Below the pieces are notes generated by a model. That model did no database searches. It worked only from the letters and a program-made list of their open reading frames with translations, and had not been told where the DNA came from. From an uncultured Gammaproteobacteria bacterium (GTDB taxonomy: Bacteria; Patescibacteriota; Microgenomatia; UBA12405; JAHJSD01), in contig CAYRYE010000001.1 in assembly GCA_964428655.1 (NCBI GenBank), positions 376,406 through 440,405 on the forward strand: a stretch of DNA of 64,000 bases, written 5' to 3'. This document shows positions 11,059 through 62,677 of the stretch, piece by piece. The translations under genes were made by a program, and so were the position numbers. How positions within the stretch are numbered: the first letter of the stretch is position 1; every line of letters starts with the position of its first letter.

Positions 11059-11112
11059 TATTTTATTCTAACACGGAGTGTATAATAAGGTAGTTGGAAT
11101 TATCTTTACAGT

Positions 11113-22155: not shown

Positions 22156-23838
22156 GTGAGGGAAAAGAAAAAAATTGGCATTATTTTGGCTGGTTTGTTT
22201 TTGGTTGGTTTCTTTCTGAGAATTTGGCGAGTCAATAATTATCCCCCTTTGCTTTGGGACGAAGCGGCATTGGGATACAATGCTTATTCCATTTTAAAAA
22301 CCGGGCGGGACGAGCATGGTCAATTTCTTCCTTTAATCTTTAAGTCTTTCGGCGATTACAAGCCCGGTCTTTATGTTTATTTGACTCTGCCCTTTGTGGC
22401 CATTTTTGGCTTGAATGAGTTAGCCGTTCGTTTGCCGTCAGTAATCTTAGGGTCATTAATGCCCCTGTTTTTATATTTGCTGGTAAAGGAAGTTTTCAAG
22501 AAGAAAAATTGGCCTGTTGGCCAATGGCTAGCAATTCTATCTGCCGCTGTTTTGACTTTCTTACCCTGGCACATTCATTTTTCCCGCGGCGCTTGGGAAA
22601 CTAACGCGATGATGTTTTTCTTGGTTTTGGGCTCCTGGCTGTTTATGAAATCTTTGAGTTCACTATCCACCATCCATTATTCACTATTTGCTTTCCTACT
22701 TTCTCTTTGGTCTTATCAGAGCGCCAAAATGCTAGTGCCGCTGATTTTGTTGGGTTTACTAATTTTTGGAAAATTGGAAATTGTAAATTGGAAATTGTCC
22801 TGCAAAGCGGGATTGTCCTTTGGACGAAAAATTCTTCCATTAATAATTTTATTTTTAATGGGAGCGTGGTATTGGCAGAGTTTTTCCGGCCCGGCCAAGA
22901 ATCGCCTTAAAGTAATGAATCTTTTTTCTCACCGACGGCCTCAGGAGGAAATTCAACAATTGTTAAATGAGGATAATGAAAAAGAAAAGAATTTGCATTT
23001 TTATATTTTTCACGGAGAATGGCTGCATTTTTTTCGAGGTTCTTTAACTCGGTACTTTAATCATTTTTCGCCTCGATTTTTGGCTTTTGACGGAGATTGG
23101 AGCAATCCACGCCATTCAGCCCCCTACTTTGGCATGATTGGCCATGTTAATTTTGTTTTATTGATAATTGGTTTAGGATTTTTTATTTCTAAAAAAAGAA
23201 GTTTAAAAGAATATTTCTTTTTATATTGGCTGCTAGTTGCTCCGTTGCCGGCGGCCTTGACCAGAGACATCGTCTCCGGAGTTAGAGCTTTGGGTATGGT
23301 AGTGCCAATTAGTTTTTTCATTGGGTATGGGTTGATAAATATCAAAATTTCAAAATCTGCTTTTCGCTATTTGCTTTTCACTATTATTTTATTGGATTTT
23401 ATCTATTGGTTTGATCTTTATCACACTCACATGGTAAAAAGACTTCCTAAAGAATGGCTTTATGGTTATAAGGAGGCAATCAGTTTTGTTATGGGCGGCG
23501 AGGATAAATTCGACAAGGTAATCCTGACAGATTTTTACGGCCAACCTCATATTTATTATCTTTTTTACTCAGGTTATTCACCATCTGAATATCAACAGAA
23601 GTTAAAACTGACAGAAAATGAAATGGGCGATGTTGCCAAGATGGAATTTCTGGATAAAATTAGTTTTAGGCCGGCTAGCTGGGGATCAGACAGAGATGCT
23701 GAAGACGCTTTGATAGTTTTTCCTCGCGATGAGTTTTTAAGGGGTGAACTTGAGGGAAAACCTGAAGCGGTTTCTCGACTCGAGCCTTTGGGGGTTATTA
23801 ATAATCAACCAATGTTCTATGGCCTTAAAAATAAGTAA
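22156..23838 (+). CDS. GT39-family (ArnT/PMT-like) glycosyltransferase, paralog 4
   Basis: …LRIWRVNNYPPLLWDEAALGYNAYSILKTGRDEHGQFLPLIFKSFGDYKPG… Contains the 2x14-nt (4x7-nt) tandem repeat at 22771-22798. Confidence 0.7.
   Translation: MREKKKIGIILAGLFLVGFFLRIWRVNNYPPLLWDEAALGYNAYSILKTGRDEHGQFLPLIFKSFGDYKPGLYVYLTLPFVAIFGLNELAVRLPSVILGSLMPLFLYLLVKEVFKKKNWPVGQWLAILSAAVLTFLPWHIHFSRGAWETNAMMFFLVLGSWLFMKSLSSLSTIHYSLFAFLLSLWSYQSAKMLVPLILLGLLIFGKLEIVNWKLSCKAGLSFGRKILPLIILFLMGAWYWQSFSGPAKNRLKVMNLFSHRRPQEEIQQLLNEDNEKEKNLHFYIFHGEWLHFFRGSLTRYFNHFSPRFLAFDGDWSNPRHSAPYFGMIGHVNFVLLIIGLGFFISKKRSLKEYFFLYWLLVAPLPAALTRDIVSGVRALGMVVPISFFIGYGLINIKISKSAFRYLLFTIILLDFIYWFDLYHTHMVKRLPKEWLYGYKEAISFVMGGEDKFDKVILTDFYGQPHIYYLFYSGYSPSEYQQKLKLTENEMGDVAKMEFLDKISFRPASWGSDRDAEDALIVFPRDEFLRGELEGKPEAVSRLEPLGVINNQPMFYGLKNK
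22771..22798 (+). repeat. Perfect tandem repeat, 2 x 14 nt (AAATTGGAAATTGT), also read as 4 x 7 nt, inside GT39 paralog 4
   Basis: Direct reading. Encodes …KLEIVNWKLSC…. Confidence 0.8.
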
Positions 23839-25354
23839 GCGGAAATTGGTTTTGATATTAATTTTATTTTTGGCGGCTTTTTTACGGCTTTATAGATTGG
23901 GTCATTATCCGCCCTTGAATGCCGACGAAGCGGCTATTGGCTATAATGCTTGGTCTATTTTAAAAACCGGCCGGGACGAGCATGGTGGCTTTTTACCCCT
24001 TCATTTCAAATCTTTCGGCGATTACAAGCCAGGGGGATATTTTTATGTTGTTCTGCCCTTTGTTGGTTTTTTAGGTCTTAACGAGTGGGCGGTTAGACTG
24101 CCTTCAGTTTTAGCAGGAATACTTACTGTTTGGCTGGTTTACCAACTGGCTAAACTGCTCTGGAAGAATGAGAAGCTGGGCTTGATTTGGGCTTTTGTTT
24201 TAACCATTTCACCTTGGCACATTCATTTTTCCCGCGGCGGCTGGGAAAGTAATTTTGCTCTGTTTTTAATTATTTTAGGAGTCTATTTTTTTTACAAATT
24301 CCTTTCTACCCGTTTAATCAAATACTTTATACTTCATACCTCATACTTCATACTTTCTCTATATATTTACCACAGCGCAAGAATTATTGCTCCGGTTCTG
24401 TTTTTAGGTTTAGTTTTATTTAACTGGAAGTTTTTTTGGCAGAGCAGGAAGCAAATCATTGCTCCACTGGTTTTTGGTTTTTTGCTTTTAATTCCGCTTG
24501 TTTTTTCGTTTTTAAAAGGCGGCGCTTCATCTAGATTCTCTGGAGTTGGGTTGTTTGCCGATACCGGCCCTTTCTGGCGAGTCAATGAGTTATTAAATCA
24601 GCATGAAGGAAAGGGTTTTCCATTTGTTAGGTTAATTCATAATAGGTTTATTATTTATGGCATTTCTTTTGCCCAGAAATATTTTTCTCATTTTAATGGC
24701 CAATTCTTATTTATTGATGGTGATGATGTGCCCCGAAGCAAAGTGCCTGACATGGGAGTGATGCACTTATTTGAAGTGGGATTTTTAATTTTAGGCATTT
24801 GGTTTTGGCTGCGAGGCAAAAGAAAGTATAAATATTTACCATTCTTATTATTAATAACAGGTCCTTTGGCATCGGCAATGACTTTTCAAGCCCCAAGCGC
24901 CTTAAGATCTTTGCCAATGGTGGTGCCGCTGACCTTTTTTGTTAGTTATGGAATCATTAACATTATTAATTTATTAAATAAAAAATTTGCCAAGCTTACT
25001 ATCTGTTATTTACTGTCTATTATCTATCTATTTAGTCTTTGTTACTGGCAGGATCGTTATTTTACTCATTATTTAAAACGATTTCCTTCGGCCTGGCCTG
25101 ATTTTAGACCGGTTGCGAATTGGGTTAAAAATAATGGTGATCAGTATGAAAAAATCTGTATTACCGGCAATTATGATCAGCCCTATATTTTGGCTTTATT
25201 CTATCTTCAATATCCGCCGGAAAAGATTCAAAAAGAGATTAAATTGACACCACCGGACGAGTTTGGTTTTTCTACAGTTGAAAACTTTGGAAAATATTAT
25301 TTTGGCAATTGCCAGGATTTCGATGGTAAAATAATTCATGGTTCAAAATACTAG
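23819..25354 (+). CDS. GT39-family (ArnT/PMT-like) glycosyltransferase, paralog 5
   Basis: …LRLYRLGHYPPLNADEAAIGYNAWSILKTGRDEHGGFLPLHFKSFGDYKPG… The likely start, ATG 23819, overlaps the upstream gene by 20 nt (ORF track start 23744). Contains the ATACTTC heptamer repeat at 24322-24356. Confidence 0.65.
   Translation: MALKISKRKLVLILILFLAAFLRLYRLGHYPPLNADEAAIGYNAWSILKTGRDEHGGFLPLHFKSFGDYKPGGYFYVVLPFVGFLGLNEWAVRLPSVLAGILTVWLVYQLAKLLWKNEKLGLIWAFVLTISPWHIHFSRGGWESNFALFLIILGVYFFYKFLSTRLIKYFILHTSYFILSLYIYHSARIIAPVLFLGLVLFNWKFFWQSRKQIIAPLVFGFLLLIPLVFSFLKGGASSRFSGVGLFADTGPFWRVNELLNQHEGKGFPFVRLIHNRFIIYGISFAQKYFSHFNGQFLFIDGDDVPRSKVPDMGVMHLFEVGFLILGIWFWLRGKRKYKYLPFLLLITGPLASAMTFQAPSALRSLPMVVPLTFFVSYGIINIINLLNKKFAKLTICYLLSIIYLFSLCYWQDRYFTHYLKRFPSAWPDFRPVANWVKNNGDQYEKICITGNYDQPYILALFYLQYPPEKIQKEIKLTPPDEFGFSTVENFGKYYFGNCQDFDGKIIHGSKY
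24322..24356 (+). repeat. Heptanucleotide tandem repeat (ATACTTC-like, 5 units) inside GT39 paralog 5
   Basis: atacttt atacttc atacctc atacttc atacttt. Encodes …KYFILHTSYFIL…. Confidence 0.8.
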
Positions 25355-26159
25355 ATACAAATTATCAGTTGCCATTGCAGCATATAATGAAGAAAAAAAT
25401 ATTGGCCGCTGTTTAGATTCAGTTAAGGGCTGGGTGGATGAAATTGTTGTTTTCGATGAATTTTCCTTTGATAGAACTAGGGAGATTGCTGAAAAGTACG
25501 GTGCTAAAGTTTTTAAAACTAAACATAAACCAATCTTTCATATCACTAAACAGAAAGCAATTGATAAATGCAAAGGAGAGTGGATTTTACAGCTAGATGC
25601 TGATGAAGTCGTTGATAGAGAATTAAAAAAAGAGATTTTAGAGATAACAAGGCAAAAAAAACACTTTGGGAGTGGCCCGAGGATGCCAATTGCCTTTTAC
25701 ATTCCCAGAAAAAACCATTTCTTGGGAAAGTGGCTTAAAAAAACCGGCCAGTATCCGGATCCGGTAATTCGGTTTTTCAAGAAAGGGAAAGCCCGTTTGC
25801 CTTGCCAATCAGTTCATGAACAAATGAAAGTAGATGGCGAAACTGGTCGGTTAAAAGGTCATTTATTTCACTACCCTTATCCTAATTTCTCTGAATATCT
25901 GCGAAAATCTAATCGCTATACAACCTTGACAGCTCAGGAAATGCTGGACCGAGGCGAAAAGCTGGGCATTGTTTCTTTTTTAAAAGCCTATTTTAAGTTA
26001 GAAAAAACTTTCTGGTCGCTATTTCTTCGCCACAAAGGCTTTTTAGACGGTTTCCCTGGATTTGTTTTCTCAGCCTATTCTGGTCTTCACCACATCACTG
26101 CCTATGTTAAATTCTGGGAGCTTCATAAACAGAGTAGAAAAACTAAAGTGTCAACTTAA
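25338..26159 (+). CDS. Family 2 glycosyltransferase, WaaE/KdtX-like
   Basis: LSVAIAAYNEEKNIGRCLDSVKGWVDEIVVFDEFSFDRTREIAEKYGAKVF…QLDADE. Confidence 0.7.
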   Translation: MVQNTRYKLSVAIAAYNEEKNIGRCLDSVKGWVDEIVVFDEFSFDRTREIAEKYGAKVFKTKHKPIFHITKQKAIDKCKGEWILQLDADEVVDRELKKEILEITRQKKHFGSGPRMPIAFYIPRKNHFLGKWLKKTGQYPDPVIRFFKKGKARLPCQSVHEQMKVDGETGRLKGHLFHYPYPNFSEYLRKSNRYTTLTAQEMLDRGEKLGIVSFLKAYFKLEKTFWSLFLRHKGFLDGFPGFVFSAYSGLHHITAYVKFWELHKQSRKTKVST

Positions 26160-26178
26160 GACACTTTGGGTGTGAAAA

Positions 26179-26207
26179 TAGACAAGGCTTTTCGTAATTG
26201 GTATAAT
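26179..26207 (+). promoter_or_regulatory. Near-consensus sigma70 promoter with extended -10: TAGACA-17nt-TGgTATAAT. The predicted TSS is about 26214.
   Basis: tagaca at 26179-26184, TG at 26199-26200, tataat at 26202-26207. It sits at the 5' edge of a 575-nt GC-rich non-coding island. Confidence 0.5.
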
Positions 26208-26213
26208 TAGAGA

Positions 26214-26735
26214 TGGTGGGAATTTTTGGTTTTACTTGCGATAGACTTACGGATCAAATGTCTCCTGCTCAAGTTAAGCTTGAGGGAGAAAGACCTATAA
26301 GAGGCGGAAGGGGTGCGTGTTTGGCAAGAGGTGGGCCGTGTTCTCAAGAGTGTGATGGGAAAGTAGAAATAACAAGGGTGACGATAAGCGCAAGAGACCC
26401 AAGGGGTTTGATAGTTCCTGTGGGGAGAGTTAGACCGGTTGCTTCTTCGCCTGGTTCGGCAAGGTAATTTCTAAGTTTTGTCTTTCTATAGCTTTTCGTG
26501 CTATACTTTTTTACGGTGGCTGAACCAAAAAGAGGCTTGAATGTAGCTCAACAAAGGGAGTTGGCACGAACAGGCAGGGTTTCCTTTTTTCCTGGGTGCA
26601 CAGTTTTAAGGCCTGCTTTAAGGCGTTCTCAGGAGACACATTTTTTGAAACGAGTTGCTAGTATTCTTCCTCCCCGCCAACGGCAGTTTGTTGAAAAGGC
26701 TATCAGGATCCAGTTTTCATGATAAAATTTCATTA
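26214..26735 (+). ncRNA. Candidate structured non-coding RNA(s) of unknown class in a GC-rich intergenic island. It could contain two transcripts; a weaker TTGTCT-18-TATACT promoter lies at 26478-26507.
   Basis: About 50% GC against a genomic ~36%. Only Gly/Arg/Pro-rich pseudo-ORFs are present. A strong promoter sits directly upstream. Long-range complementarity links 26541-26556 (UAGCUCAACAAA) with 26683-26703 (UUUGUUGAAAAGGCUA). Some RNase P-like and tmRNA-like motif fragments are present, but no complete match was found by eye. Confidence 0.3.
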
Positions 26736-27812
26736 ATGGCGGGTAAACTTATTGTTGGTGTTGATACTACTTCTCTTTACACAGGTCATAAAGTTAGAGG
26801 AATTGGATTTTATACCAAGAGATTGTTAAGAGAAATTAAGAAATTTAGAAATTTAGAAATTAGGGAGCTAAAAAACAAGCAAGAGATTGAAAAAGGCGGT
26901 TACGATTTGCTCCATATACCATATTTCCACCCTTACTTTTTTACCTTGCCTTTTCGAAAAACGAAACCGTTGGTAGTGACGATTCATGATTTGGTTCCGG
27001 TTAAATATCCAGAACATTATCCACCGGGGAAAAAAGGCAAACTTCGTTGGCAAGTTCAAAAAAGATTATTAAGAAGGGTAGATTTTATTATCACTGATTC
27101 TTTTAATTCAAAATACGACATTGCTGATTTAACCGGCTATCCCCAGGACAGAATTTATGTAGTTTATCTGGCGGCTGGGGGAGAATTTAAAAAGCTAGAA
27201 GCCAGAAGTTTAAAGTTGAAGATTAAGAAGAAATATAATTTGCCCGATCAATTTGTTCTCTATGTTGGCGATGTTAATTGGAACAAAAATGTGCCGGGAT
27301 TGGTTAGAGCTTGTGAAAAAATCAGCGTGCCGTTAGTGATCGCTGGTAAACAAGCAGTAGCAAAAGATTTTGATTCTCATCATCCCGAAAACCGAGATCT
27401 CGTTTGGCTGCAAAAAAAGTATCAAGTATTAAGTAATAAGTATCAGGGGAAAGAAAAGAGATTTTATTTATTAGGGTTTGTACAGTCCGAGGAGCTAACA
27501 GCGCTTTACAACCTTGCTGTTGTTTATTGTCAACCCTCTTTTGACGAAGGCTTTGGCTTGCCGGTTTTAGAAGCAATGGCCTGTGGTTGTCCGGTTGTTT
27601 GTTCAAATAAAGGAAGTTTGCCGGAAGTGGCTGGCGAGGCGGCAGAAATGGTTGAGCCGACGGTTGATGAGCTGGCCGCTGGAATTAAGAGAGTGATTGG
27701 AAATAAAGACTTGCAGAAAAAACTTTCTAAGCTCGGTCTCGCCCGCGCCAAAGAATTTTCCTGGCAAAGAACGGCAAAAGAAACAATGGATGTTTATCAT
27801 TTGGTTGTATAG
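26736..27812 (+). CDS. GT4-family (GT-B) glycosyltransferase
   Basis: …FDEGFGLPVLEAMACGCPVVCSNKGSLPEV… The true start is the internal ATG at 26736 (MAGKLIVGVD…). The upstream part of the track ORF lies in the GC island. Confidence 0.7.
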   Translation: MAGKLIVGVDTTSLYTGHKVRGIGFYTKRLLREIKKFRNLEIRELKNKQEIEKGGYDLLHIPYFHPYFFTLPFRKTKPLVVTIHDLVPVKYPEHYPPGKKGKLRWQVQKRLLRRVDFIITDSFNSKYDIADLTGYPQDRIYVVYLAAGGEFKKLEARSLKLKIKKKYNLPDQFVLYVGDVNWNKNVPGLVRACEKISVPLVIAGKQAVAKDFDSHHPENRDLVWLQKKYQVLSNKYQGKEKRFYLLGFVQSEELTALYNLAVVYCQPSFDEGFGLPVLEAMACGCPVVCSNKGSLPEVAGEAAEMVEPTVDELAAGIKRVIGNKDLQKKLSKLGLARAKEFSWQRTAKETMDVYHLVV

Positions 27813-27868
27813 GAAAAAATTACCCCTTGACAGGCTTTTTAAAATGCTGTTCTATTGAAATAGAGCTT

Positions 27869-30800
27869 ATGAGGCATCGCAAGTTTCTTTTTGGTTTTCT
27901 CCTTATCTTGTTTTTAGTTGGGGGAGCGGTTTCCGTTTCTCGGGTTATAAAAATAGTTCGGGCGGCTGACATTTCAGTTTCTGTTTTTACAGCTGATGAC
28001 TATGATACTTCTGCGGAAGATGTTACTTATGACCTTACTTTTGTCGCACCGGTAGATGAAGATGAATATTATCAATTTGGTCTAATGCGTGTTCGCGGCG
28101 ATCATTCTACGGTCGGGGCTGATTTTGCTAACGCAACCCTTGTTACATTAACTGATGACGGCGCTGATATTTCCGGCAATGTCTCTCTTAGCAAACATAG
28201 CCCTGATGAAACTGGCTATGTTTCTGGATTTACCCTTCTATTTAGTGGCGGACTTACAATAGAGGGAGGCTCAACAGTTGTTGCCAGCTTTGGCGGGATC
28301 ACTAATCCAGTTGGAGAAGGTGCTTTTATACCAAGCATTAGCGGTTCGGATTGGAGCGAAACTAATCAGGGCAGTGCTCCGTCTCAAGCATTTGGAACAC
28401 CATTGGTTAAATTTAAAGTTACTGATCCAGAGGGAACCGTTGTTTCTAATGCTAACATTTGGATTGGAAGCCTTTCGACAATGAACTATTTTAATGCCGG
28501 CGGCGAAACTGATGCCGGTGGACAAACCTTTTTCTTTATAAGTGATTTTTATGGAGTTGATGATGCCGACAGAAGTGGCGATTACTCCGTTGAAATTAAT
28601 CCTCCTTCTGATAGTGAATACACCCGGCCTCCGAATTTTACTATTACATTAGCTGAGGGCGAGACTCTTGATTGTACAAATAAGGGTTCAACTTGCAGTG
28701 AGGATGTTGGTAATGGCCCGATTTTACTAACAAGGCCAATGGCCAAAGGAAAAGTTGTTGTCCCGGCTAATCCTCCAAGCACTGTTACTGCCTTAGCTGG
28801 TTCAGGGGTGGCTAATGTCCAGGTTCAGGTTAGAGATAGTGTCAGTATGGATCCCGGTGCTTCCAATTGGATGTGGACTGATTCTGAAGGAAACTTTAGA
28901 ATAGGCGGTTTATCAGCCGGCACTTATACTATTGAATTTGCCATGGGTTGGGGCAATGAGCAATTTGTTGGCTTATTGGCTCCTGATACAATAACCAACT
29001 TTGTTGTCAATGCTAATGGATCTGTTACTTATAATAGTTCAACTACAGCGGCAGCGAGTTTACCTCGTGATTTTGGCAATCTTGCTTTGCAAGTGGCCAA
29101 TAAAGATATCCTTGGCAAAGTTGTTGACGGTGACGGAAATGGAATTAATGGCATGAGGATTAGGGCCAACAAAATGATGGGGATGGGGGATAGCCAAACC
29201 ACAACAGCCGCTAATGGCACTTATGGTCTTCAAGTTGGCGCTGGTAATTGGTGGATAATGCCGGAGATAGATTATTCCAATAACTATGATGATGACACAA
29301 CTAATGATGTATCAGCTAATTATATTTATTGTGGTATGCCTAAAAATGTTGTTTTTGAGGAAGCCAATTCTGTGGAAGAATCATCTACCGGCAACAATTT
29401 TACTATGAAGCAGGCCACGGCTACAATTACCGGAAGAGTCGTTCTTCCCAATGGATCACCAGTAACAGGCAATGCCGGCGTTAATGCTTTTTCTAAAGGT
29501 GGCTGCGGCGGTTATTCTTCAGTTGATTGGGATGATGGGACTTTCTCAGTATCTGTTCCTCCCGGTACATACAATATTCAGGTTAATTCCTGGAATGAAG
29601 AATATGGAGACCCTGCAACCGAAACAGTTACTGTTACTACAGGGACAACGAATTTAGGTGATTTTTCCTTGGTTGCTAAAGAAGCAAGAATCAGTGGTCG
29701 GCTTTGGGCTGATGCTAATAATAATGACACCTATGATGCTGGCGAAGGAGTGGGTAATACTCGGGTTGAAGCTTTTAAAATGGCCAGAAAATTTGACGAG
29801 TTTTCCATGGGAGGAATGGGCGGCCCAATGGGAGGATCTGATTGGGCGACAACTAACAGCTCTAATGATGCGGCAACAAAGGGGCAGTTTACTCTTTATG
29901 TTACTCAAGGCAGCTGGAATGTCAATGTCATGGCTGATATGGGAATGATGCACGGTGGTTATTCAACCACGGCGACTAATTACATTTACACTGGATCACC
30001 AATTCAGGTTAATATTACCTCTGCTACTGGAACAAGTACAGGAAATAACTTTGAGTTAAAAGTTGCCGACGCCACTATTAATGGTCGTTTGTGGAATGAT
30101 ATTAATGAAGATGGTGAGTTTGATAATGGTGAGGGGGTTCCCGGTGTGTTTGGCTATGCTTTTGCTGAACCTGATGGTGCCTTTAATCAAGGCCCGATGA
30201 TGGGCATGGGCATGGGAGCGGGAATTAATAATGGCAGTTTTACAATTAAAGTCCCTGCCGGAACCTATCGAGTGGGAGTTGATTTCCCTCCTGACATGGC
30301 TGGATATACCCCATCTGCTATGGCCACTGTTACTGTTGCCGAGAGCGGAACGGCAACTGTAAACGTTCCCGTTATTGAAAACAATGCCATAGTTGCTATG
30401 TGTTTTAAAGATGTTGATGGCAATGCAGTTACTTCTCTTCAATATGCAGAAACCTTTTTAAACAATTCAGCCGGAGCCCACCAGTGGCAAATGTTTTCTA
30501 CAGAAAATCTTACTACCGGTTGTGCCAATATTACTACGGCCGCTGGAGAGTGGTATATTGGCTATCACATAGATCCAACCACTGATAATTATATGAGTGA
30601 GCCTATGTCTGATAACAAAGTGACCGCTATCGCCGATGATACTGTTACTAAAAACATTACCTTAAGGGTAGCGGATTCAACCGTTAGCGGCACTGTTTAT
30701 GACCCCAGCGGCAGCCCCTTGGCCGGTGTATTTATTTCAACAGACAATCGTAAAGCAGCCGGGTTTGATATGGCCGGACCAATGTTTATGCGGGGTGAAG

Positions 30801-32443
30801 TAACTGAAAATGATGGCGCTTATTCTTTAACCTTACCGGCCGGCACTTATAAAGTAGAAGCCCGTTTCCCTCCATCAGCCGTTGTTGGCGGACAAACCGT
30901 TACTTATTTAAATCCTGACGGGCAAGAAGTAACCATTTCGGCAGATTCTCCGGTAACAGCTAACTTTACTTTTCAAGAGTCTGATGCGACGATTACCGGA
31001 ACAGTGACCTTGGATGGAAATGATCAAGGAGCTTTCATTAGCGCTTACTCTGATGTTAGCGGCTACAATGAGACTATCACTACCAACGGCAGCTATACTC
31101 TTAATGTAACCAAAGATGATACTTGGTATTTGCGGGCAATGTACGAAACTGGGAACGACTTTTATCAATCTGATATTCATGAAGTTGCCATGGGCGGCAA
31201 TACTACACAATCTCAAGATTTAGCAATGTCAGTTGTTTCTTTCACTATTCCTGATCCTGTTTCAACCACATTTAATTGCGCTAACGCTAAACAAGTAACT
31301 CTTTCTAATGGCGCCAGCCTTTCAATTCCTGCCAGCGCCATTGTACCTGCTTCCGTGGATTCTTGCGACTCTACTGATTCAGGCAGCAATATTACTTTAA
31401 ACATTAATCCAACGGCTCAAATGTCTTTGCAAGACCAATCAATTCCTATTGGTGTTGGTTACGAAATTTCGGCTTCCGACAGCAACGGAAGCACTATTTC
31501 TGATACTTTTAATTCAAATGTCACTCTTACTATTCCCTATACTGATGAGGAAATAGAGGCGGCAATTGGAGGAACAATTGACGAAGAGCTTTTGGGTAAT
31601 GGGTATTGGGACACATCAACTTCAGCTTGGCGGAGCGTTGATAGTCAGGTTTTAGACGCAGATAATGACACTTTGACTATTTCTACCAACCACTTTACTT
31701 TGTTTGGAGTGCTGGCGGCAACTGATGCTTCAACTACTGGAGGGGATTCTGGTGATGATTCTGTTAGTAGCGGAGCAGCAGCTGGCACCACTGCCTCAGG
31801 TGGAGTTTCCAAGCCAATGGCTCCCAAAAACACAGGCTCAATTGTTGAGGGAGCAGTTAATCGAGTCACTCTGATGATTCCTTCGGGAGCCTTGAAGTGG
31901 GACGGTGATTTTGAAATTAACAAATTAGAATCTGGTTTTAATAAACCTAGGCCTCCACTTTGGATTGCCTCTGGGCCGTATAAAGTAGTTATGAAGTCTT
32001 GGTGGAATGGAGCAGAGTTTTCTGATTTTAAAAAGCCGGTCATATTAATAGTCAGATATGACCCCACTGCTTTAGGAGAGATTCCGGAATCATCTCTAAG
32101 ATTAAATTACTATGATTCCGTCAAAGGTTACTGGAGGCCCATTAGCTCCCTTCTTATCAAGGACAGACATGAAGTGGCCGCCGTTATTGACCAAATCCAT
32201 GGCACTTATGCTCTAATTGGCGGTTTTGGTTACCAAGGGGCGCCGGCTTACACGGGCACTACCGTTACTGCTGAAGCAGGGTCAGAAGAAATAGGAATAA
32301 CTGAAGAATTATTGCCGACTGAAGAAATCAAGGAAGAAACCAAACATCCAACAGCGGTTAGCGAACCGGTTGAACAGGAACCGGCTCCTAAAGAGAGTTG
32401 GTTGAGACGGCTCTTGAAGAAAATCTTTCCCTTTCTGCGCTGA
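27869..32443 (+). CDS. Giant (about 1524 aa) secreted or surface protein. It has an N-terminal signal/TM anchor, multiple Cna-B / SdrD-B-like / carboxypeptidase-regulatory-like beta-sandwich repeats, a Ser/Thr/Gly-rich linker, and a basic/hydrophobic C-terminal tail.
   Basis: MRHRKFLFGFLLILFLVGGAVSV signal-like N-terminus. Repeats are seeded by …ATITGRVVLPNGSPV…, …ARISGRLWADANNNDTYDAGEGVGN…, …ATINGRLWNDINEDGEFDNGEGVPG…, …STVSGTVYDPSGSPLAG…, and …ATITGTVTLDGND…. Met-Gly-rich loops are present (MMGMGD, MGGMGGPMGG, PMMGMGMGAG, MADMGMMHGG, MAGPMFMRG). No LPXTG motif. Confidence 0.7.
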   Translation: MRHRKFLFGFLLILFLVGGAVSVSRVIKIVRAADISVSVFTADDYDTSAEDVTYDLTFVAPVDEDEYYQFGLMRVRGDHSTVGADFANATLVTLTDDGADISGNVSLSKHSPDETGYVSGFTLLFSGGLTIEGGSTVVASFGGITNPVGEGAFIPSISGSDWSETNQGSAPSQAFGTPLVKFKVTDPEGTVVSNANIWIGSLSTMNYFNAGGETDAGGQTFFFISDFYGVDDADRSGDYSVEINPPSDSEYTRPPNFTITLAEGETLDCTNKGSTCSEDVGNGPILLTRPMAKGKVVVPANPPSTVTALAGSGVANVQVQVRDSVSMDPGASNWMWTDSEGNFRIGGLSAGTYTIEFAMGWGNEQFVGLLAPDTITNFVVNANGSVTYNSSTTAAASLPRDFGNLALQVANKDILGKVVDGDGNGINGMRIRANKMMGMGDSQTTTAANGTYGLQVGAGNWWIMPEIDYSNNYDDDTTNDVSANYIYCGMPKNVVFEEANSVEESSTGNNFTMKQATATITGRVVLPNGSPVTGNAGVNAFSKGGCGGYSSVDWDDGTFSVSVPPGTYNIQVNSWNEEYGDPATETVTVTTGTTNLGDFSLVAKEARISGRLWADANNNDTYDAGEGVGNTRVEAFKMARKFDEFSMGGMGGPMGGSDWATTNSSNDAATKGQFTLYVTQGSWNVNVMADMGMMHGGYSTTATNYIYTGSPIQVNITSATGTSTGNNFELKVADATINGRLWNDINEDGEFDNGEGVPGVFGYAFAEPDGAFNQGPMMGMGMGAGINNGSFTIKVPAGTYRVGVDFPPDMAGYTPSAMATVTVAESGTATVNVPVIENNAIVAMCFKDVDGNAVTSLQYAETFLNNSAGAHQWQMFSTENLTTGCANITTAAGEWYIGYHIDPTTDNYMSEPMSDNKVTAIADDTVTKNITLRVADSTVSGTVYDPSGSPLAGVFISTDNRKAAGFDMAGPMFMRGEVTENDGAYSLTLPAGTYKVEARFPPSAVVGGQTVTYLNPDGQEVTISADSPVTANFTFQESDATITGTVTLDGNDQGAFISAYSDVSGYNETITTNGSYTLNVTKDDTWYLRAMYETGNDFYQSDIHEVAMGGNTTQSQDLAMSVVSFTIPDPVSTTFNCANAKQVTLSNGASLSIPASAIVPASVDSCDSTDSGSNITLNINPTAQMSLQDQSIPIGVGYEISASDSNGSTISDTFNSNVTLTIPYTDEEIEAAIGGTIDEELLGNGYWDTSTSAWRSVDSQVLDADNDTLTISTNHFTLFGVLAATDASTTGGDSGDDSVSSGAAAGTTASGGVSKPMAPKNTGSIVEGAVNRVTLMIPSGALKWDGDFEINKLESGFNKPRPPLWIASGPYKVVMKSWWNGAEFSDFKKPVILIVRYDPTALGEIPESSLRLNYYDSVKGYWRPISSLLIKDRHEVAAVIDQIHGTYALIGGFGYQGAPAYTGTTVTAEAGSEEIGITEELLPTEEIKEETKHPTAVSEPVEQEPAPKESWLRRLLKKIFPFLR

Positions 32444-33640: not shown

Positions 33641-34837
33641 ATGATTAAGTATATCTTTAAACTTTTCTTATTCCTTCAGATAATTTTTATTTTTTCATGG
33701 TTTTCGGGAAAGAGTTTTCTGCCTCTAAAGGAGGCGTTTTTGGGTAGAGGGTTGGGGGAACTCACTGATCAACCTTTAATTTGGAGTCGAGCCAATTTTG
33801 ACGGTTTTTATTATGCTAAGATTGCTCGCGACGGCTACCAGTATCTCCAGCAAGCTTTTTTTCCTTTTTATCCGAGATTAATTGAGCTTCTTCAGCCGAT
33901 TTTTCAAAGCTTTATTGTTTCTGGAATTTTTATTTCCTCATTGTTTTTTATTTTTTGCCTTTGGCTGTTGGCAAAAATTTTAAAAGAGGAGGGCGAAAAA
34001 GAAGAGACGATAAAAAAAACCCTCCTCTTTTTAGTTTTGTTTCCTACTAGTTTTTACTTTATTTCCGTTTACACGGAATCGCTGTTTTTTTTCCTTGTTC
34101 TTTTGGTTTTTTGGTTAGCGAAGAAGAAAAAGTGGTTTTGGGTTGGCTTAGTGGCAGGGCTAGCCTCTTATACCCGCCTGGTGGGCATCTTTCTTTTTCC
34201 TGCTTTAGTCTATGAATATTACGAAGGCGAGAGCAAAAGGAGAATGAAAGAAAGAGTGGCGGTGGCAAAGAAAACGTTGGCCGCCAGGTTGAACTTTAAA
34301 TATTTAACTTATTTTTTCAAAAGCCGCCGGCGTCATATTAAAAATTTATTCTTTATCTCTCTTTCCTCTTGGGGTCTTCTTGGTTATATGAGTTATTTAC
34401 AAAAAACAATGCAAGATTATTTCTATTTTATTAAAGTTCAATCAGGTTTCGGAGCCCAACGAGATGTGAGTAGAATAATAATGATTTATCAGGTCTTTTG
34501 GCGTTATTTAAAAATGATTTTGACGGTTAACTTCAGAGATCCAATTTACTTTACAATATGGTTGGAGCTTTTAGTTAGCTCTTTGTTCTTGATATTGCTG
34601 GTATTGGCTTGGTGGAAATTCAAGTTGCGTCAGTCATGGCTTGTTTTTTCTGTCTTAGCCTACATCTTGCCGACTTTAACCGGTACTTTTTCCTCAATGC
34701 CCCGCTATGCGTTGGTTTGTTTTCCCTGCTTTTTAGTTTTGGCCAAGCTTAAGCTGCCTAAATGGGTTTATCCTGTTAGTGGAGGGCTTCTCTTGCTTTG
34801 TTCTGCCTTATTTGTCAGAGGTTACTGGATAGGGTGA
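33641..34837 (+). CDS. Polytopic membrane protein, PIG-V/Gpi18-like mannosyltransferase family (GT-C, DUF2029-type)
   Basis: 398 aa and multi-TM. The N-terminal lumenal loop …WSRANFDGFYYAKIARDGYQYLQQAFFPFYP… is typical of GPI-mannosyltransferase-2-like bacterial homologs. Confidence 0.5.
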   Translation: MIKYIFKLFLFLQIIFIFSWFSGKSFLPLKEAFLGRGLGELTDQPLIWSRANFDGFYYAKIARDGYQYLQQAFFPFYPRLIELLQPIFQSFIVSGIFISSLFFIFCLWLLAKILKEEGEKEETIKKTLLFLVLFPTSFYFISVYTESLFFFLVLLVFWLAKKKKWFWVGLVAGLASYTRLVGIFLFPALVYEYYEGESKRRMKERVAVAKKTLAARLNFKYLTYFFKSRRRHIKNLFFISLSSWGLLGYMSYLQKTMQDYFYFIKVQSGFGAQRDVSRIIMIYQVFWRYLKMILTVNFRDPIYFTIWLELLVSSLFLILLVLAWWKFKLRQSWLVFSVLAYILPTLTGTFSSMPRYALVCFPCFLVLAKLKLPKWVYPVSGGLLLLCSALFVRGYWIG

Positions 34838-36282
34838 TTGCTAAGCGCATTTTTGTTTTCGGTCTTGACGGAGCTACTTGGAAGATTATTGATAGTTTTA
34901 TCAAAAAAGGGCATTTGCCATTTATTAAAAAGTTGATTTCTCAGGGGGCTAGGAAAGAATTAATTAGTACTATTCCACCAAGAACTGCTCCGGCCTGGTC
35001 TTCATTTATCACTGGCCAAAATCCAGGCGAGCATGGAGTTTTTGATTTTGTTGTTAGAAATAATGTTTTTGGCAAGGAAAAAAAGAAACTTGTTAATGGC
35101 AGTTGGCTAAAGACTAAGTTTTGGCAGGCGTGGGAAAAAGATGGAAAAAGGATTGCTTTAATTAATCTTCCCATGACTTATCCGATCGAAGAAGTAAATG
35201 GAGTGGTGGTTTCTTCAATATTAACACCAAGGGGCAAAAAATGGTTTTATCCTCAAGAATTAGGGAAAGTACTTAAAGAGGTGGGTTATGAAATGGAAAA
35301 TTTTGGTTTTTTAGAAAGAGCTTCTAAATCAAAGATATCTTCCAGGGAAATTTTTGCAAAGATTAAGAAAATGGCCGAGGCAAAGTTTTTATTAGCTCGT
35401 CGGTTGTTGGAAAAAAAAGATTGGGATTTCTTTTTCCTGCTTTTCAGCGAAACCGATTGGATTCAACACTTGTTTTGGCGAGGTGGCCAAACTTTAAAAA
35501 TCTATCAAAAAATTGACCAGTACTTGGAAACGCTCTATGAGATTTTAAGAAAAAAATATGGAGCAAGAAATTTTTCTTTTTTTGTTATTTCTGATCATGG
35601 CTTTCATTTGGCTCCAGGAGTTCACTTTAATGTTTATCCCTGGTTAAGGAAAAACAAGTTTCTAAGACCTTCACCAAGAGCTTTTTTAGGCAGAGTTTTG
35701 CGAAAGTTTTCCTTTTGGGAAGAAGATAAAACCAAAAGTAGATTTGGCGATTGGGGGCAAAGCAGTATTTTAAAAACTGGCTCTTTTGGTTTTTGGCTGA
35801 ACAAGAAAGTTTTGGGAAAAAAATACAATTCATTTAGAAATAATTTAATAAAAGAGTTGGGAAACTTGAAGTTCGAGAACGGCAAAAAGATTTTTAGGAT
35901 GGTGGCTAAGAGAGAAGATGTTTATTGGGGTAGGAAGCTTAAAGATTTTTGGGATATTATTTGGTTGACCAACTCTTATTTCACCATCGGACCTTGCTCG
36001 ATTGAAAGAAAACTTTTTGTTCCCAGGGAAAAAGGGGTTAAGGCAACCCATGATTCAGATAGAAAAGGCATTTTTTTGGTTAAAGGTGTAGGAATCAAAA
36101 GCCAGCTTCGCCGTTGGCTGGATAGGGAACTTTATATTTGGAACATGGCCGATATTTTTAATCAGATTTTTAATTATGATGGTAAAATTATTAGTGGTCA
36201 AACTGGGGCAAAAAGGAGTAAATTCGATAAAGCTGGAGAAAAAGAAATAATAGCCAGGTTAAAGGCGTTGGGATATGTTTAA
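34834..36282 (+). CDS. Alkaline-phosphatase-superfamily enzyme (type I phosphodiesterase / nucleotide pyrophosphatase / phosphoglycerol-transferase-like)
   Basis: IFVFGLDGATWKIIDSFIKKGHLPFIKKLISQGARKELISTIPPRTAPAWSSFITGQNPGEHGVFDF shows the metal-ligand and nucleophile region of AP-superfamily enzymes. A GTG at 34834 overlaps the upstream TGA (GTGA). The ORF track start is 34798. Confidence 0.6.
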   Translation: MIAKRIFVFGLDGATWKIIDSFIKKGHLPFIKKLISQGARKELISTIPPRTAPAWSSFITGQNPGEHGVFDFVVRNNVFGKEKKKLVNGSWLKTKFWQAWEKDGKRIALINLPMTYPIEEVNGVVVSSILTPRGKKWFYPQELGKVLKEVGYEMENFGFLERASKSKISSREIFAKIKKMAEAKFLLARRLLEKKDWDFFFLLFSETDWIQHLFWRGGQTLKIYQKIDQYLETLYEILRKKYGARNFSFFVISDHGFHLAPGVHFNVYPWLRKNKFLRPSPRAFLGRVLRKFSFWEEDKTKSRFGDWGQSSILKTGSFGFWLNKKVLGKKYNSFRNNLIKELGNLKFENGKKIFRMVAKREDVYWGRKLKDFWDIIWLTNSYFTIGPCSIERKLFVPREKGVKATHDSDRKGIFLVKGVGIKSQLRRWLDRELYIWNMADIFNQIFNYDGKIISGQTGAKRSKFDKAGEKEIIARLKALGYV

Positions 36283-38314: not shown

Positions 38315-39304
38315 ATGGCCATCGAAGCCTCTATTATCATTCCCGTAAAAGAAATTAATGATTATATACGGGATGAGATAATTCCGGCTTTAAAAAGACA
38401 GACTTTTAAAAATTTTGAATTGATAATTATTCCTGATAGACATGGGGGCTTGGTCCGTTTTCCTTCATTTGTCAGAATTTTTCCTTCATGGCCAAAGATA
38501 GGTCCGGCTTTTAAAAAAGATTTAGGAGTAAAAAAGGCCAAAGGAGAAATTGTTGTCTTTCTTGATGATGATGCTTATCCGGAAAAAGATTGGTTAGAAA
38601 AAGCAATACCTTATTTTAAAAGAGATGAAGTGACGGCTGTTTGCGGTCCTGGGGCGACTCCAGCCAATGATCCTGTTTTGGCCAAAGTTTCCGGTTGGAT
38701 GTGGTCATCGCTTTTGGGCTCTGGTGGAGCCGGAACTTACCGCTGCTGGCCTGGCAAAAAGCGAGAGGTGGATGACTATCCAGCCTTTAATTTATTTGTT
38801 AGAAAAAAAGATTTTGAATCAGTGGGTGGGTTTGATTCCAAATTCTGGCCGGGCGAGGATACTAAATTGTGCCATGATCTAGTCTATAAATTGGGCAAGA
38901 AAATTATTTATGATCCTAAAATTTTGGTTTATCATCACCGAAGAAAAATATTTAAACCCCATCTTAAGCAAATCGGCCGCTATGGATTCCAACGGGGATA
39001 TTTTGTTAGAATTTTGCCCAAAACTTCTAAAAGAATTGGTTATTTTATGCCGACACTTTTTGCGTTAGGCTTAATAATCGGGCCTGTTTTTTATTCTATT
39101 TTCGAGTCAGAGATAATAATTAATTTTTATTTATTTTCACTATTTGTTTATTTTTCGTTATTATTTGGAACAACAATTTGGGTTTTTACTAAAAGCAAGA
39201 ATTTGTTAATAGCTTTGCTGGTAATGCCAACAATTTTTGCCAGCCATGTTTTCTATGGCATTATGTTTTTAAAGGGGTTGTTCAGCAGACTGGAGACTAT
39301 TTAA
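38315..39304 (+). CDS. GT2 glycosyltransferase with a C-terminal membrane-spanning region
   Basis: ASIIIPVKEINDY…FELIIIPDRHGG…VVFLDDDAYP GT-A core. The last roughly 90 aa are hydrophobic. Confidence 0.6.
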   Translation: MAIEASIIIPVKEINDYIRDEIIPALKRQTFKNFELIIIPDRHGGLVRFPSFVRIFPSWPKIGPAFKKDLGVKKAKGEIVVFLDDDAYPEKDWLEKAIPYFKRDEVTAVCGPGATPANDPVLAKVSGWMWSSLLGSGGAGTYRCWPGKKREVDDYPAFNLFVRKKDFESVGGFDSKFWPGEDTKLCHDLVYKLGKKIIYDPKILVYHHRRKIFKPHLKQIGRYGFQRGYFVRILPKTSKRIGYFMPTLFALGLIIGPVFYSIFESEIIINFYLFSLFVYFSLLFGTTIWVFTKSKNLLIALLVMPTIFASHVFYGIMFLKGLFSRLETI

Positions 39305-41017
39305 TAGTTGTTTTGCCTTTTCATTGGCGGGTTGCAGTTCAATAAACTTTTTTAGATTTTCTTCGGCAAGCTTGAAATTCTTTTGTTCAAGATAAATAGC
39401 GGCTAGGTTTTGGTAAGACTGCCAGATATTAGGATTAATCTCAATGGCTTTTTGGTAATTTTTAATTGCTTCGTTGATCTTGTTGGTTTGCCAATAAATA
39501 TTGGCTAAATTATGATAAGCATCGGCATAGCCTGGTTTTAGTTCAATCGCTTTTTTAAATTCTTCAATTGCTTTTTCAAAATTACCGTGACGGCCGTAAT
39601 AATCACCTAAATTATTATGATTTTGATGACTTGAGGGTGAAGTTTTGGCCGCCGCCAGCCAAAGATTATCCTGATTTTTCCAATCACGATTTCTGACAAT
39701 TGTTCTTGTCGTTAAGGCAACAAGAATTAGAGTAAAAATAATCAGAGGTATATTTCTAATCTTCTTTATATCGTTTAGTTTTTTAACTACTATGGCGATG
39801 ACCACAAAGATGCCAATTGAGCCGAGATAGACATACCGTTCAGCTACGAGCCAAGAGATTCCAAACGGAGTCATTGTTGGTAGGAGAGAAATGATAAAAA
39901 ATGACAGCCAAAAAAAGATATGACGATTTCGTTTAAAACTGTAGACAATTATTCCCAAGAAAGCAATTAGAACTCCTAATTTTATAAAATATTCTAATTG
40001 GCTAAAGACCATTTCTGAATGATAAAGAGTCAAATTTTTTGGCCAGAAGATAAGTTCAAGATAGGAAGTAATTGCGATTGGTACTTGGTGTAAAAGATTG
40101 GAAGTTTTGGGTTTTTGGTAAAAGTTTGTTTCCAACGAAGTAATCCTGGTTCCCATAGCTCCGGAGCTGAGAAAATAAAGTCCCCAAAAACTACTTATTC
40201 CTAGAAAAAGGAGAAGCTTTTTCCAATTGGTTTTTAAGTTTTCAAAACAGAGTTCGTAAACAAAGAGAATAATTGGAAAAATAATTGCTTTCTCAGAGAT
40301 AGTGAGAGCCAAGAAAAAACTGGTGAGAGAGAGGTAGATGTATCGGTTGTTTTTTAGGGTCAAGATGTAAGAAAGAATGGATAGCATTATGAAGAAACTA
40401 TACATACAGTGGCCTCCGCCAGAAATCCAAGTAATAGATTCAATGAGAATAGGGTGGACAGCGGCAAGAGAGGCGGCCATGATTGCTGTTATTTTGTCAA
40501 AAAGAAGATAAATAATGATGAAAACTAGACAAACGGTTGCCAGGTGGAAAAGAATATTGGGAAGTCGAAAGGCGATTGGTGATTTGCCAAAAACTTGGTT
40601 AATCAAAAAGTAAAACAGAGGTTGAAAAAATCTCAGTAGACGAAAAGGAGAGGAGGTAACATATGAAATATCATCTATGTTCTTGTTATTAAGAATGCCT
40701 TCTATATCATCAGAAACAAATTCGTTGTTAATGGAATTTGCATATGAAATAAAGACAAGAACGATTAGGACTATTATATAGAGATAATGTTCAATCATCC
40801 ATTGTTTGAAGCCAAATTTAGATAAATTTTTCCTTTTGTCTTCTTCTGTAGATTTTTGTTGTTTGATAAAGCGTTGATATTTTTTTTCTTTCCAAATTTT
40901 TTTCAAATAAGACTGAATTGTCTCGGGAGGAATATCTGAGTCTTTAGCGACTTGGCTTAAACTCATGATCTTAAGTTTTTTTCTTATCTCTTCTTTTTGT
41001 TTTTTTGTAAGATTCAT
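39269..41017 (-). CDS. Integral membrane GT-C-like protein fused to a C-terminal TPR-repeat domain
   Basis: 582 aa. The N-terminus is charged and HTH-like (…MSLSQVAKDSDIPPETIQSYLKK…). About 11 TM helices follow. The C-terminus has at least three TPR units (…AIEEFKKAIELKPGYADAYHNLANIYWQTNKINEAIKNYQKAIEINPNIWQSYQNLAAIYLEQKNF…). Confidence 0.55.
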   Translation of the reverse strand: MNLTKKQKEEIRKKLKIMSLSQVAKDSDIPPETIQSYLKKIWKEKKYQRFIKQQKSTEEDKRKNLSKFGFKQWMIEHYLYIIVLIVLVFISYANSINNEFVSDDIEGILNNKNIDDISYVTSSPFRLLRFFQPLFYFLINQVFGKSPIAFRLPNILFHLATVCLVFIIIYLLFDKITAIMAASLAAVHPILIESITWISGGGHCMYSFFIMLSILSYILTLKNNRYIYLSLTSFFLALTISEKAIIFPIILFVYELCFENLKTNWKKLLLFLGISSFWGLYFLSSGAMGTRITSLETNFYQKPKTSNLLHQVPIAITSYLELIFWPKNLTLYHSEMVFSQLEYFIKLGVLIAFLGIIVYSFKRNRHIFFWLSFFIISLLPTMTPFGISWLVAERYVYLGSIGIFVVIAIVVKKLNDIKKIRNIPLIIFTLILVALTTRTIVRNRDWKNQDNLWLAAAKTSPSSHQNHNNLGDYYGRHGNFEKAIEEFKKAIELKPGYADAYHNLANIYWQTNKINEAIKNYQKAIEINPNIWQSYQNLAAIYLEQKNFKLAEENLKKFIELQPANEKAKQLLNSLQSAEQPL

Positions 41018-61152: not shown

Positions 61153-61153
61153 A

Positions 61154-61903: not shown

Positions 61904-61915
61904 TTTTACTTTTCT

Positions 61916-62593: not shown

Positions 62594-62677
62594 CTTTTAG
62601 TTTTTACCCCCCTTCAGCTATTTTTCAAGTAGGTAAATAAGTAGTGGCTTTTAGTAGCTTTGTGGTAAAATTTTGTC

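Follow-up and report, generated by a model that had tools for sequence, protein, structure and literature searches.

Why should a stalk built of ordinary β-sandwich domains carry loops packed with methionine? The question is raised by an open reading frame (ORF) in a 64-kb stretch of contig CAYRYE010000001.1 (assembly GCA_964428655.1), the whole of which is referred to here as the window. The ORF encodes a protein of 1524 residues, which adds a member to a large and so far unstudied family of surface stalk proteins from Candidate Phyla Radiation (CPR) bacteria. Its sequence, predicted structure and relatives together reveal a secreted, rod-like surface protein with a tip domain, about nine β-sandwiches, two ZU5/GAIN-like modules around a linker, and a C-terminal tail. 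Five loops of the sandwich domains are rich in methionine (Met). These loops are conserved, recur elsewhere in the family and probably lie at the junctions between domains, which makes them a new variant feature of such stalks. Binding of a soft metal is our best guess at their function, and a tentative one.

Methionine-rich loops of the stalk domains

The five Met-rich segments picked out by the first-pass annotation are all present in the translation, namely KMMGMGD (residues 435–441), SMGGMGGPMGG (residues 646–656), MADMGMMHGG (residues 688–697), GPMMGMGMGA (residues 775–784), and MAGPMFM (residues 968–974), which are referred to as loops 1 to 5, respectively. The overall Met content of the protein is ordinary (42 of 1524 residues, 2.8%), and it is the clustering that exceeds chance. 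When the protein was shuffled 5000 times, clusters of at least four Met per 15 residues, three of which were observed, occurred with a mean of 0.19 (p = 6e-4), and clusters of at least three Met per 15 residues, five of which were observed, with a mean of 1.7 (p = 0.01). Within the window, no second ORF of at least 100 residues has more than one such cluster. The Met residues of every loop show spacings of the MM, MxM, MxxM, and MxxxM types. Every loop also has an acidic residue in or beside it: Asp441 for loop 1, Asp643, Glu644 and Asp658 for loop 2, Asp690 for loop 3, Glu767 and Asp769 for loop 4, and Asp967 for loop 5.

Residues 405–1040 were modelled with AlphaFold2 from an alignment of eight sequences, giving a mean predicted local distance difference test score (pLDDT) of 74. 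The model is composed of six consecutive β-sandwich domains (D3–D8), each having seven main strands as assigned by DSSP. In this model the Met-rich segments are seen as intradomain loops and not as linkers, four of them connecting strands 2 and 3 and one connecting strands 5 and 6. The pLDDT is below 50 in four of the five loops and about 65 in loop 5. The first-pass annotation had named a location in predicted disordered linkers as a finding that would speak against its proposal; the disorder is there, in a model based on only eight sequences, and the linkers are not. Low pLDDT should in any case not discriminate for or against metal binding, because the Met-rich domain of CueO, which is proven to recruit Cu(I) by taking up chelated Cu+, is itself intrinsically disordered in crystals and AlphaFold models (PMC12041951). 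The earlier description of the segments as inserted has to be corrected. A true insertion, of about 19 residues, is found in loop 2 alone; the other four have lengths similar to those of the corresponding loops in relatives and are substituted with Met. From these alignments, the loops are better described as having become Met-rich than as having been inserted.

We then inspected the conservation of the loops. In an alignment of six orthologues with 49–100% identity, 11 of the 17 loop Met residues are invariant, compared with 44% of all columns in residues 405–1040 and with four of the 11 other Met residues in that region. Invariant in the six orthologues are Met436 and Met437 of loop 1, Met654 of loop 2, Met688, Met691, Met693 and Met694 of loop 3, and Met777, Met778 and Met782 of loop 4. 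Met972 of loop 5 is invariant in close orthologues, and distant ones have Trp, Phe or Arg in its place. Among the loci, Met and Gly stay the same, but the codons of the neighbouring Gly, Pro, Val, and Ala differ in their third positions. As synonymous sites vary with the residues retained, the comparison of coding sequences shows that the loops are under purifying selection at the protein level and are not products of recent slippage. One relative, 49% identical, was obtained from a GTDB genome scan, and the label of its metagenome-assembled genome, ‘uncultured Pseudomonadales’, was treated as unreliable for taxonomy.

An exhaustive HMMER search returned 492 homologues, 95 of them with E-values below 1e-30. 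A distant homologue of the protein is annotated as Candidatus Kerfeldbacteria. In the extended alignment, the cores of loop 3 (D-x-GMM-x-GGY) and loop 4 (GPMMG-x-GMG) are retained down to about 40% identity, and the two loops are found together in 13 proteins. In loops 1 and 2 it is the Met content that is kept rather than the exact sequence, and loop 2 varies among orthologues in both length and number of Met. Non-conservation among homologues, which had been set beforehand as the other finding that would count against the loops, is thus not borne out.

The enrichment extends beyond the close relatives. A total of 730 domains of the family were split by hidden Markov models, and the strand 2–3 loop was compared with the remainder of each domain. 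In the close clade, Met makes up 17% of the loop and 2.5% of the rest of the domain. The corresponding values for 694 domains of more distant homologues are 3.9% and 1.3%, and those for the D6-type domains among the 694 are 7.8% and 1.3%. A second lineage, formed by proteins P0057, P0059, P0088, P0114, and P0129, is about 32–36% identical to the protein studied here and has the motif VM[VI]MPMS at the strand 5–6 position. Four of these five proteins carry, 68–86 residues further on and in the strand 2–3 loop of the next domain, a long Met/Asp/Gly-rich insert, such as GPMDDMMEKSGMMTGG and PMDDMMGGMDSGGMMGMGMEK. The Met segments of this lineage occupy the positions of loops 3 and 4 with unrelated sequence; as judged from the alignments, at least two lineages of the family are enriched in Met at these two loop positions. 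As to composition, the second-lineage inserts have up to 10 Met in 70 residues and are nearer to the CueO/CopA repeats than the five loops described above.

Fold of the domains and junctions between them

Among Pfam families, the protein matches CarboxypepD_reg (PF13620; transthyretin-like clan) with 119.6 bits against a cut-off of 32.3, in five significant stretches of which the best covers residues 938–1035. SdrD_B (PF17210) scores below its gathering threshold (25.7 versus 29.7 bits) in a single stretch, residues 312–361, and Cna_B (PF05738) gives no match to the protein at E ≤ 1. Further sub-threshold matches are SpaA, TTR, and NOMO; those of SdrD_B, fn3_3, SpaA, and TTR-52 at residues 312–367 are all below threshold. 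No NCBIfam family is assigned to the protein, and a sequence search of the PDB with residues 405–1040 yielded no match at E ≤ 1. When the model of the same residues was compared with the PDB by Foldseek, the best matches were CnaB-type tandem domains, led by the TIE protein of B. anthracis (6fwv, E 3e-14). Cna B1B2 (1d2p, E 7.8e-10) and SdrD A2-A3-B1-B2 (10ps, E 1.9e-8) were also found, both with a probability of 1.0, as were streptococcal and other Gram-positive pilins, 4oq1 being among the best matches. The label ‘Cna-B/SdrD-B-like’ given to the protein by the first-pass annotation hence holds at the level of fold and superfamily, but not at the level of Pfam, where only CarboxypepD_reg passes the threshold.

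The likeness to the B-repeat stalks of SdrD and Cna, to CnaB-type pilins and to the TIE protein lies in a tandem rod of seven-stranded β-sandwiches that projects a tip domain. D5 and D6 share another feature with the SdrD B repeats, an EF-hand-like DxNxDGxxDxxE loop after the first strand, which is reportedly typical of those repeats. As read from the sequence, the D6 loop DINEDGEFDNGE fits this consensus canonically and the D5 loop DANNNDTYDAGE is near-canonical; ligation of Ca2+ by them is putative. Different from SdrD, Cna, and the pilins, the protein scores as CarboxypepD_reg, with SdrD_B sub-threshold and Cna_B unmatched, and it has neither Ser-Asp repeats nor an LPXTG sortase signal. Sortase anchoring was considered and rejected, as there is no LPXTG motif. 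To our knowledge, no Met-rich junction loops have been described in folds of the SdrD, Cna, pilin or TIE type. A literature search, which is weak evidence of novelty given its incomplete coverage, found no earlier account of Met-rich loops in surface proteins of the CPR or in domains of the CnaB type.

In a seven-stranded, up-and-down antiparallel sandwich, the strand 2–3 loop would lie at the N-terminal pole and the strand 5–6 loop at the C-terminal pole. With this topology, the Met loops would sit at interdomain junctions, and loop 3 of D5 would face loop 4 of D6 across the D5/D6 junction, where the two may cluster about eight Met residues. A Cys pair located one domain pair earlier gives independent support to this placement. 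Cys488 (29330–29332), in the strand 5–6 region of D3, and Cys546 (29504–29506), in the strand 2–3 loop of D4, occupy the equivalent positions, and among 158 proteins they are found jointly in 10 and never singly. Such strict co-occurrence is expected of residues that touch each other, and suggests that the two form an interdomain disulfide or a shared site.

The strand 5–6 loop of D3 (residues 468–482, 29270–29314, DYSNNYDDDTTNDVS) has the position paralogous to that of loop 3. It is rich in Asp and Asn, is modelled with low confidence, and could be a Ca2+-type site. The equivalent loop position accordingly appears to hold hard-ligand residues in one domain and soft-ligand residues in another. 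Taken with the EF-hand-like loops of D5 and D6, the D3 loop suggests that the poles of these domains host ligand-rich loops more generally.

Candidate roles of the Met-rich loops

Of the roles considered, the one that we put first, still with more doubt than confidence, is that the junction loops bind a soft metal of the Cu(I) type. The flexible, thioether-rich loops would capture the metal outside the cell, chiefly Cu(I) and possibly Ag(I), and would act in the manner of the Met-rich segments of CueO, CopA and PcoA or of the Ctr1 Mets motifs. Metal would be buffered at the cell surface in this way, or its binding would stiffen the stalk, as Ca2+ does in SdrD B-repeats. A more specific form of this proposal, which we hold to be somewhat unlikely, is that composite Cu(I)/Ag(I) sites made of thioethers only are assembled at the stalk joints, chiefly by loop 3 of D5 and loop 4 of D6; the protein would then be a new surface metal-binding or metal-responsive adhesin-like protein of CPR bacteria.

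Outside the cytoplasm, Met is the usual ligand of Cu(I), and ligand sets made of Met alone are chemically adequate for Cu(I) or Ag(I). The enrichment of five loops in Met and that of the second lineage in Met together with Asp, the spacing of the Met residues, their acidic neighbours, the extracytoplasmic location and the flexibility expected from Gly make the loops resemble the Met-rich regions of Cu(I)/Ag(I) proteins. Clustered MxM, MxxM, and MM motifs in a predicted extracytoplasmic protein, as found here, are the mark of Met-motif proteins of this kind. The loops share with the Met-rich segments of the multicopper oxidases (CueO, CopA/PcoA, McoA) the extracytoplasmic location, the richness in Met and Gly (and Asp), the variability of length and sequence between relatives, and the disorder. 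We take loop 3, with its DMGMMHGG, and the loops of the second lineage (PMDDMMEKSGMM) to resemble the MDHSxMxGM-type repeats of these oxidases. The oxidases differ in having a single long insert that feeds a catalytic copper centre, whereas the loops studied here are short (5–20 residues), are distributed across several non-catalytic domains and contain few or no His, in a protein with neither an oxidase domain nor the ligands of type 1, 2 or 3 copper. The Cu5 site of CueO is Met2Asp2 (PMC12041951). A second likeness, in the MxM, MxxM, and MM spacing and the extracellular setting, is to the Mets motifs of Ctr1 and to the Cu(I) sites, composed of Met only or of Met and Trp, in CusF, CusB, and CopC; in this case the differences are the unrelated sequence and fold and the lack of a cus/cop gene context.

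Several observations weigh against metal binding. Homology to a copper protein was not found in Pfam, NCBIfam or the PDB sequence search, and by fold the matches belong to adhesins and pilins. The window and five homologous loci (L001, L005, L006, L007, and L008) contain no cop, cus, pco or cue gene. His is not conserved in the loops, the residue at His695 being Gly, Ser or Asn in orthologues. In distant relatives hydrophobic residues take the place of Met777 (Ile, Phe or Val), Met782 (Leu, Ile or Val), and Met972 (Trp or Phe), which fits packing equally well. Of the 150 best homologues, about two thirds are without any Met cluster, so that the loops are dispensable for the core role of the family. 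Finally, the junction geometry is derived solely from topology, and the loops have low confidence in the model.

The hydrophobic replacements are also what would be seen if the Met residues served as flexible packing that, without any ligand, glues or hinges consecutive domains, or holds a loop to its own domain. Such a structural clasp would be one of several junction chemistries, beside the Cys pair and the Ca-type acidic loops. It agrees with the strict pairing of Cys488 and Cys546 at equivalent positions of D3 and D4, with the co-occurrence of loops 3 and 4, and with the absence of copper genes from every context examined. We regard it as the main rival of metal binding, and as unlikely. 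Gly-rich loops of low confidence do not look like a packed interface, and Met436, Met439, and Met691 give way to polar residues, Pro or Gly rather than to hydrophobic residues. Packing also leaves unexplained why Met, and not Leu or Phe, is used in five loops of one lineage and, together with Asp, in another.

The next proposal, an improbable one, is that the loops act as methionine bristles, whose malleable surfaces contact a partner such as neighbouring stalks in a lattice, components of a host-cell envelope, or lipids. Binding surfaces rich in Met are known from SRP54 and calmodulin, members of the CPR are inferred to be episymbionts, and the protein is extracellular with apparently flexible loops. 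Yet the loops are short and located along the middle of the stalk (D3–D8), not at its presumed N-terminal tip, they are absent from most family members, and no partner is identifiable.

Still less probable is a sacrificial sink, in which Met residues exposed on the cell surface would react with H2O2, HOCl or chloramine, whether or not methionine sulfoxide reductase (Msr) then repairs them. The apparent exposure and flexibility of the loops would suit this role, as would the fact that loops 1 and 2 are selected for their content of Met and not for a precise sequence. But scavenging requires neither clustering nor MxM spacing nor fixed positions, while the GMM and PMM cores are positionally invariant; the total Met content is merely ordinary, and no Msr gene was found in the window. 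The lowest probability goes to neutral, functionless low-complexity sequence generated by slippage of ATG-GGN units, a reading already disfavoured: repeat-like DNA is present in loops 1, 2 and 4 (ATGGGG twice, ATGGGNGGN three times, ATGGGC two to three times) and loop 2 is variable among orthologues, but the loops are conserved at least as well as the domain cores, keep their residues while synonymous sites diverge, have cores that persist down to about 40% identity, and have Met-rich counterparts in the same places in the second lineage.

The remaining modules and the gene neighbourhood

The features of the protein and its nearest neighbours are collected in Table 1. The ORF starts with ATG at 27869, the protein beginning MRHRKF; a TTG at 27827, 42 nucleotides upstream, is an alternative start that would give 1538 residues. 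Public assemblies hold an identical protein, on contigs of up to 548 kb. A Sec signal peptide is probable at the N-terminus. In orthologue P0006, a hydrophobic, transmembrane-like segment is found where the protein studied here has its C-terminal amphipathic tail. This points to anchoring at the C-terminus, with the N-terminal domain presumed to be the distal tip of the stalk. Residues 1036–1524 were modelled separately (mean pLDDT 62), and the model has the order of the D9 sandwich, two β domains around a disordered linker, a disordered acidic tail, and a terminal amphipathic helix.

Table 1. Features of the surface protein and adjacent glycosyltransferase genes, with positions in the window
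Feature	Residues	Position	Strand	Remarks
Whole ORF	1–1524	27869–32443	+	Secreted multidomain surface protein of 1524 residues; stop codon included
Signal peptide, putative Sec	1–32	27869–27964	+	MRHRK (basic), 18-residue hydrophobic core, VRA/A
N-terminal domain, no family assigned	33–180	27965–28408	+	Nothing in Pfam at E ≤ 0.1
D1–D2, transthyretin/CnaB-like β-sandwich	181–409	28409–29095	+	Sub-threshold Pfam matches at residues 312–367; D1 boundary from sequence pattern only
D3	410–516	29096–29416	+	Met loop 1 (strand 2–3), acidic Asp/Asn-rich strand 5–6 loop, Cys488; DSSP of model and alignments
Met loop 1, MMGMG	436–440	29174–29188	+	Strand 2–3 loop of D3; pLDDT < 50
D4	517–604	29417–29680	+	Strand 2–3 loop SKGGCGG with Cys546; model and alignments
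D5, SdrD_B-like	605–733	29681–30067	+	EF-hand-like DANNNDTYDAGE loop; Met loops 2 and 3
Met loop 2, MGGMGGPMGG	647–656	29807–29836	+	Strand 2–3 loop of D5, inside Gly/Pro-rich, clade-specific insertion of ~19 residues
Met loop 3, MADMGMMHGG	688–697	29930–29959	+	Strand 5–6 loop of D5
D6, SdrD_B-like	734–838	30068–30382	+	Canonical EF-hand-like DINEDGEFDNGE loop; Met loop 4
Met loop 4, PMMGMGMGA	776–784	30194–30220	+	Strand 2–3 loop of D6
D7, β-sandwich without Met loop	839–935	30383–30673	+	Model
D8	936–1038	30674–30982	+	Best CarboxypepD_reg match (residues 938–1035); Met loop 5; Pfam and model
Met loop 5, MAGPMFM	968–974	30770–30790	+	Strand 2–3 loop of D8
D9, β-sandwich	1039–1125	30983–31243	+	Second model, pLDDT 74–89
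ZU5/GAIN-like domain 1	1126–1283	31244–31717	+	Ends NHF/TLFGVLA (31688–31717); Foldseek
Ser/Thr/Gly-rich disordered linker	1284–1323	31718–31837	+	pLDDT 21–33
Second ZU5/UPA-like β domain	1324–1451	31838–32221	+	Ends in degenerate IHGTYALIGG; weaker model, pLDDT 57–74
Acidic disordered tail and C-terminal amphipathic helix (ESWLRRLLKKIFPFLR)		32222–32440	+	Alignment and model; presumed cell-proximal anchor
Two PMT/PMT_2 GT-C glycosyltransferases, GT2, GT4 (upstream)		22156–27812	+	PMT/PMT_2 genes at 22156–25354
PIG-V/PMT_2-like GT-C glycosyltransferase (downstream)		33641–34837	+	Equivalent position in locus L007

Foldseek matched the C-terminal model with the ZU5-ZU5-UPA region of ankyrin (4d8o, E 5.2e-5; 6m3r, E 1.2e-4), and with the GAIN domains of adhesion G-protein-coupled receptors (GPCRs; 4dlo, 8vy2, and 8oek, probability ~1). 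The NHF-TLFGVLA motif that ends the first of the two modules is the most conserved of the C-terminal half. NHFTLFG (residues 1274–1280) is invariant in eight aligned sequences, down to 23–26% identity over the aligned C-terminal fragment, and 119–120 of 158 family proteins contain H-[FL]-[TS]-x-F-[AGS]-[LIV]. Searched against the whole PDB, a profile of 32 members of the family matched only the GPS regions of ADGRF1 and ADGRB2 (E 0.015–0.29) and one weaker unrelated chain (to E 0.5); it aligns HFT-x-F-A with HLT/SFS of ADGRF1. The Pfam GPS model is sub-threshold at the motif (13.7 bits versus a cut-off of 22.5, E 0.096), and the Pfam ZU5 model has no match to the protein.

The domain of residues 1126–1283 looks like a ZU5/GAIN-type autoproteolytic module beside the anchor, with a putative cleavage site between Phe1276 and Thr1277. 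Its likeness to ZU5/GAIN-GPS domains consists of the fold, the position adjoining a presumed membrane anchor, and the H-[FL]-[TS]-x-F-[AG]-[LIV] domain end followed by a hydrophobic strand, which can be compared with HL/T-x-F-A-V-L of adhesion GPCRs. It differs from them in scoring below the Pfam ZU5 and GPS models and in having no GPS cysteines. ZU5 autopeptidase domains have been described before in large surface proteins of bacteria, as has the way in which they relate to GPS (Zhang et al. 2012, PMC3482391). The module is of a kind already known in bacteria, and is a matter separate from that of the Met loops.

What is conserved in the linker among the six aligned orthologues is its Ser/Thr-rich composition, not its sequence. 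The first-pass annotation had seen in it an O-glycosylation substrate of neighbouring GT-C enzymes, and PMT/PMT_2 genes do flank the surface-protein gene. A disordered Ser/Thr-rich tract next to PMT-family genes is what characterizes substrates of PMT-type O-mannosylation, and O-glycosylation of this candidate tract by the neighbouring GT-C enzymes is plausible. The gene order of five PMT_2, GT2, GT4, surface protein, and PIG-V-like GT-C is seen again around orthologue P0013 (46% identity; locus L007). The gene of P0006 has a GT-C gene about 4 kb upstream, and those of orthologues P0003, P0011, and P0012 lie in unrelated contexts without this order.

The window, which has a low GC content (33–44%) and gave nothing in Rfam, is almost wholly a glycan-biosynthesis island. 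It contains at least seven GT-C enzymes (PMT/PMT_2, GT87, and PIG-V-like) and many GT2 and GT4 enzymes, together with methyltransferases, Wzx-type flippases, and an ABC-2 exporter. The GT-C paralogues are unusually dense (9214–17371, 22156–25354, 33641–34837, and 39269–41017; a GT87, five PMT/PMT_2 and one PIG-V-like), and an additional candidate has a weak PMT_2 match fused to TPR repeats. The gene at 17723–18793 (+) encodes a radical S-adenosylmethionine (SAM) rRNA methyltransferase, whose named relatives are mostly of the Cfr type (C8 of adenine-2503) and not RlmN; the best of them, from Candidatus Shapirobacteria, is 61% identical. Taken with the distant homologue from Candidatus Kerfeldbacteria and the contigs that hold the identical protein, this Cfr-like gene makes an uncultured, ultrasmall bacterium of the CPR (Patescibacteria) the probable source of the window. 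A 1015-residue fusion at 53394–56441 (+) combines a sub-threshold N-terminal sulfotransferase-like match with two GT2 domains. The region 57502–63979 encodes a 1216-residue CotH kinase-like protein with a C-terminal NosD/β-helix part, a VTC-domain protein, a DUF4956 protein, and an EpsG-like membrane protein. The NosD match of Pfam, at 57502–61152, was rejected as copper evidence, as it is a generic β-helix match in the CotH protein. The island also holds a radical SAM/SPASM enzyme (46386–47411, +) and a phosphodiesterase of the alkaline-phosphatase superfamily (34798–36282, +). Radical SAM/SPASM enzymes of the anSME type mature enzymes of that superfamily. As a modifier of the Met loops the SPASM enzyme was dropped, having neither precedent nor linkage.

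CPR bacteria, or Patescibacteria, account for a large part of the diversity of bacteria, and hardly any of their envelope proteins have been characterised. Should the Met loops merely serve packing, they are ordinary variation, specific to a lineage, on a common type of repeat protein. If they bind Cu(I), a stalk of the CnaB/SdrD type would for the first time be seen to contain a soft-metal site of Met only, which would point to an extracellular strategy of metal buffering or metal stiffening in organisms with minimal genomes. The junction chemistry, comprising the Cys pair, the acidic loops, and the Met loops, is apparently swapped at equivalent positions and offers a testable handle on how such stalks are constructed. 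The gene order with PMT-type glycosyltransferases, which recurs at the 46%-identity orthologue, provides another handle on stalk building.

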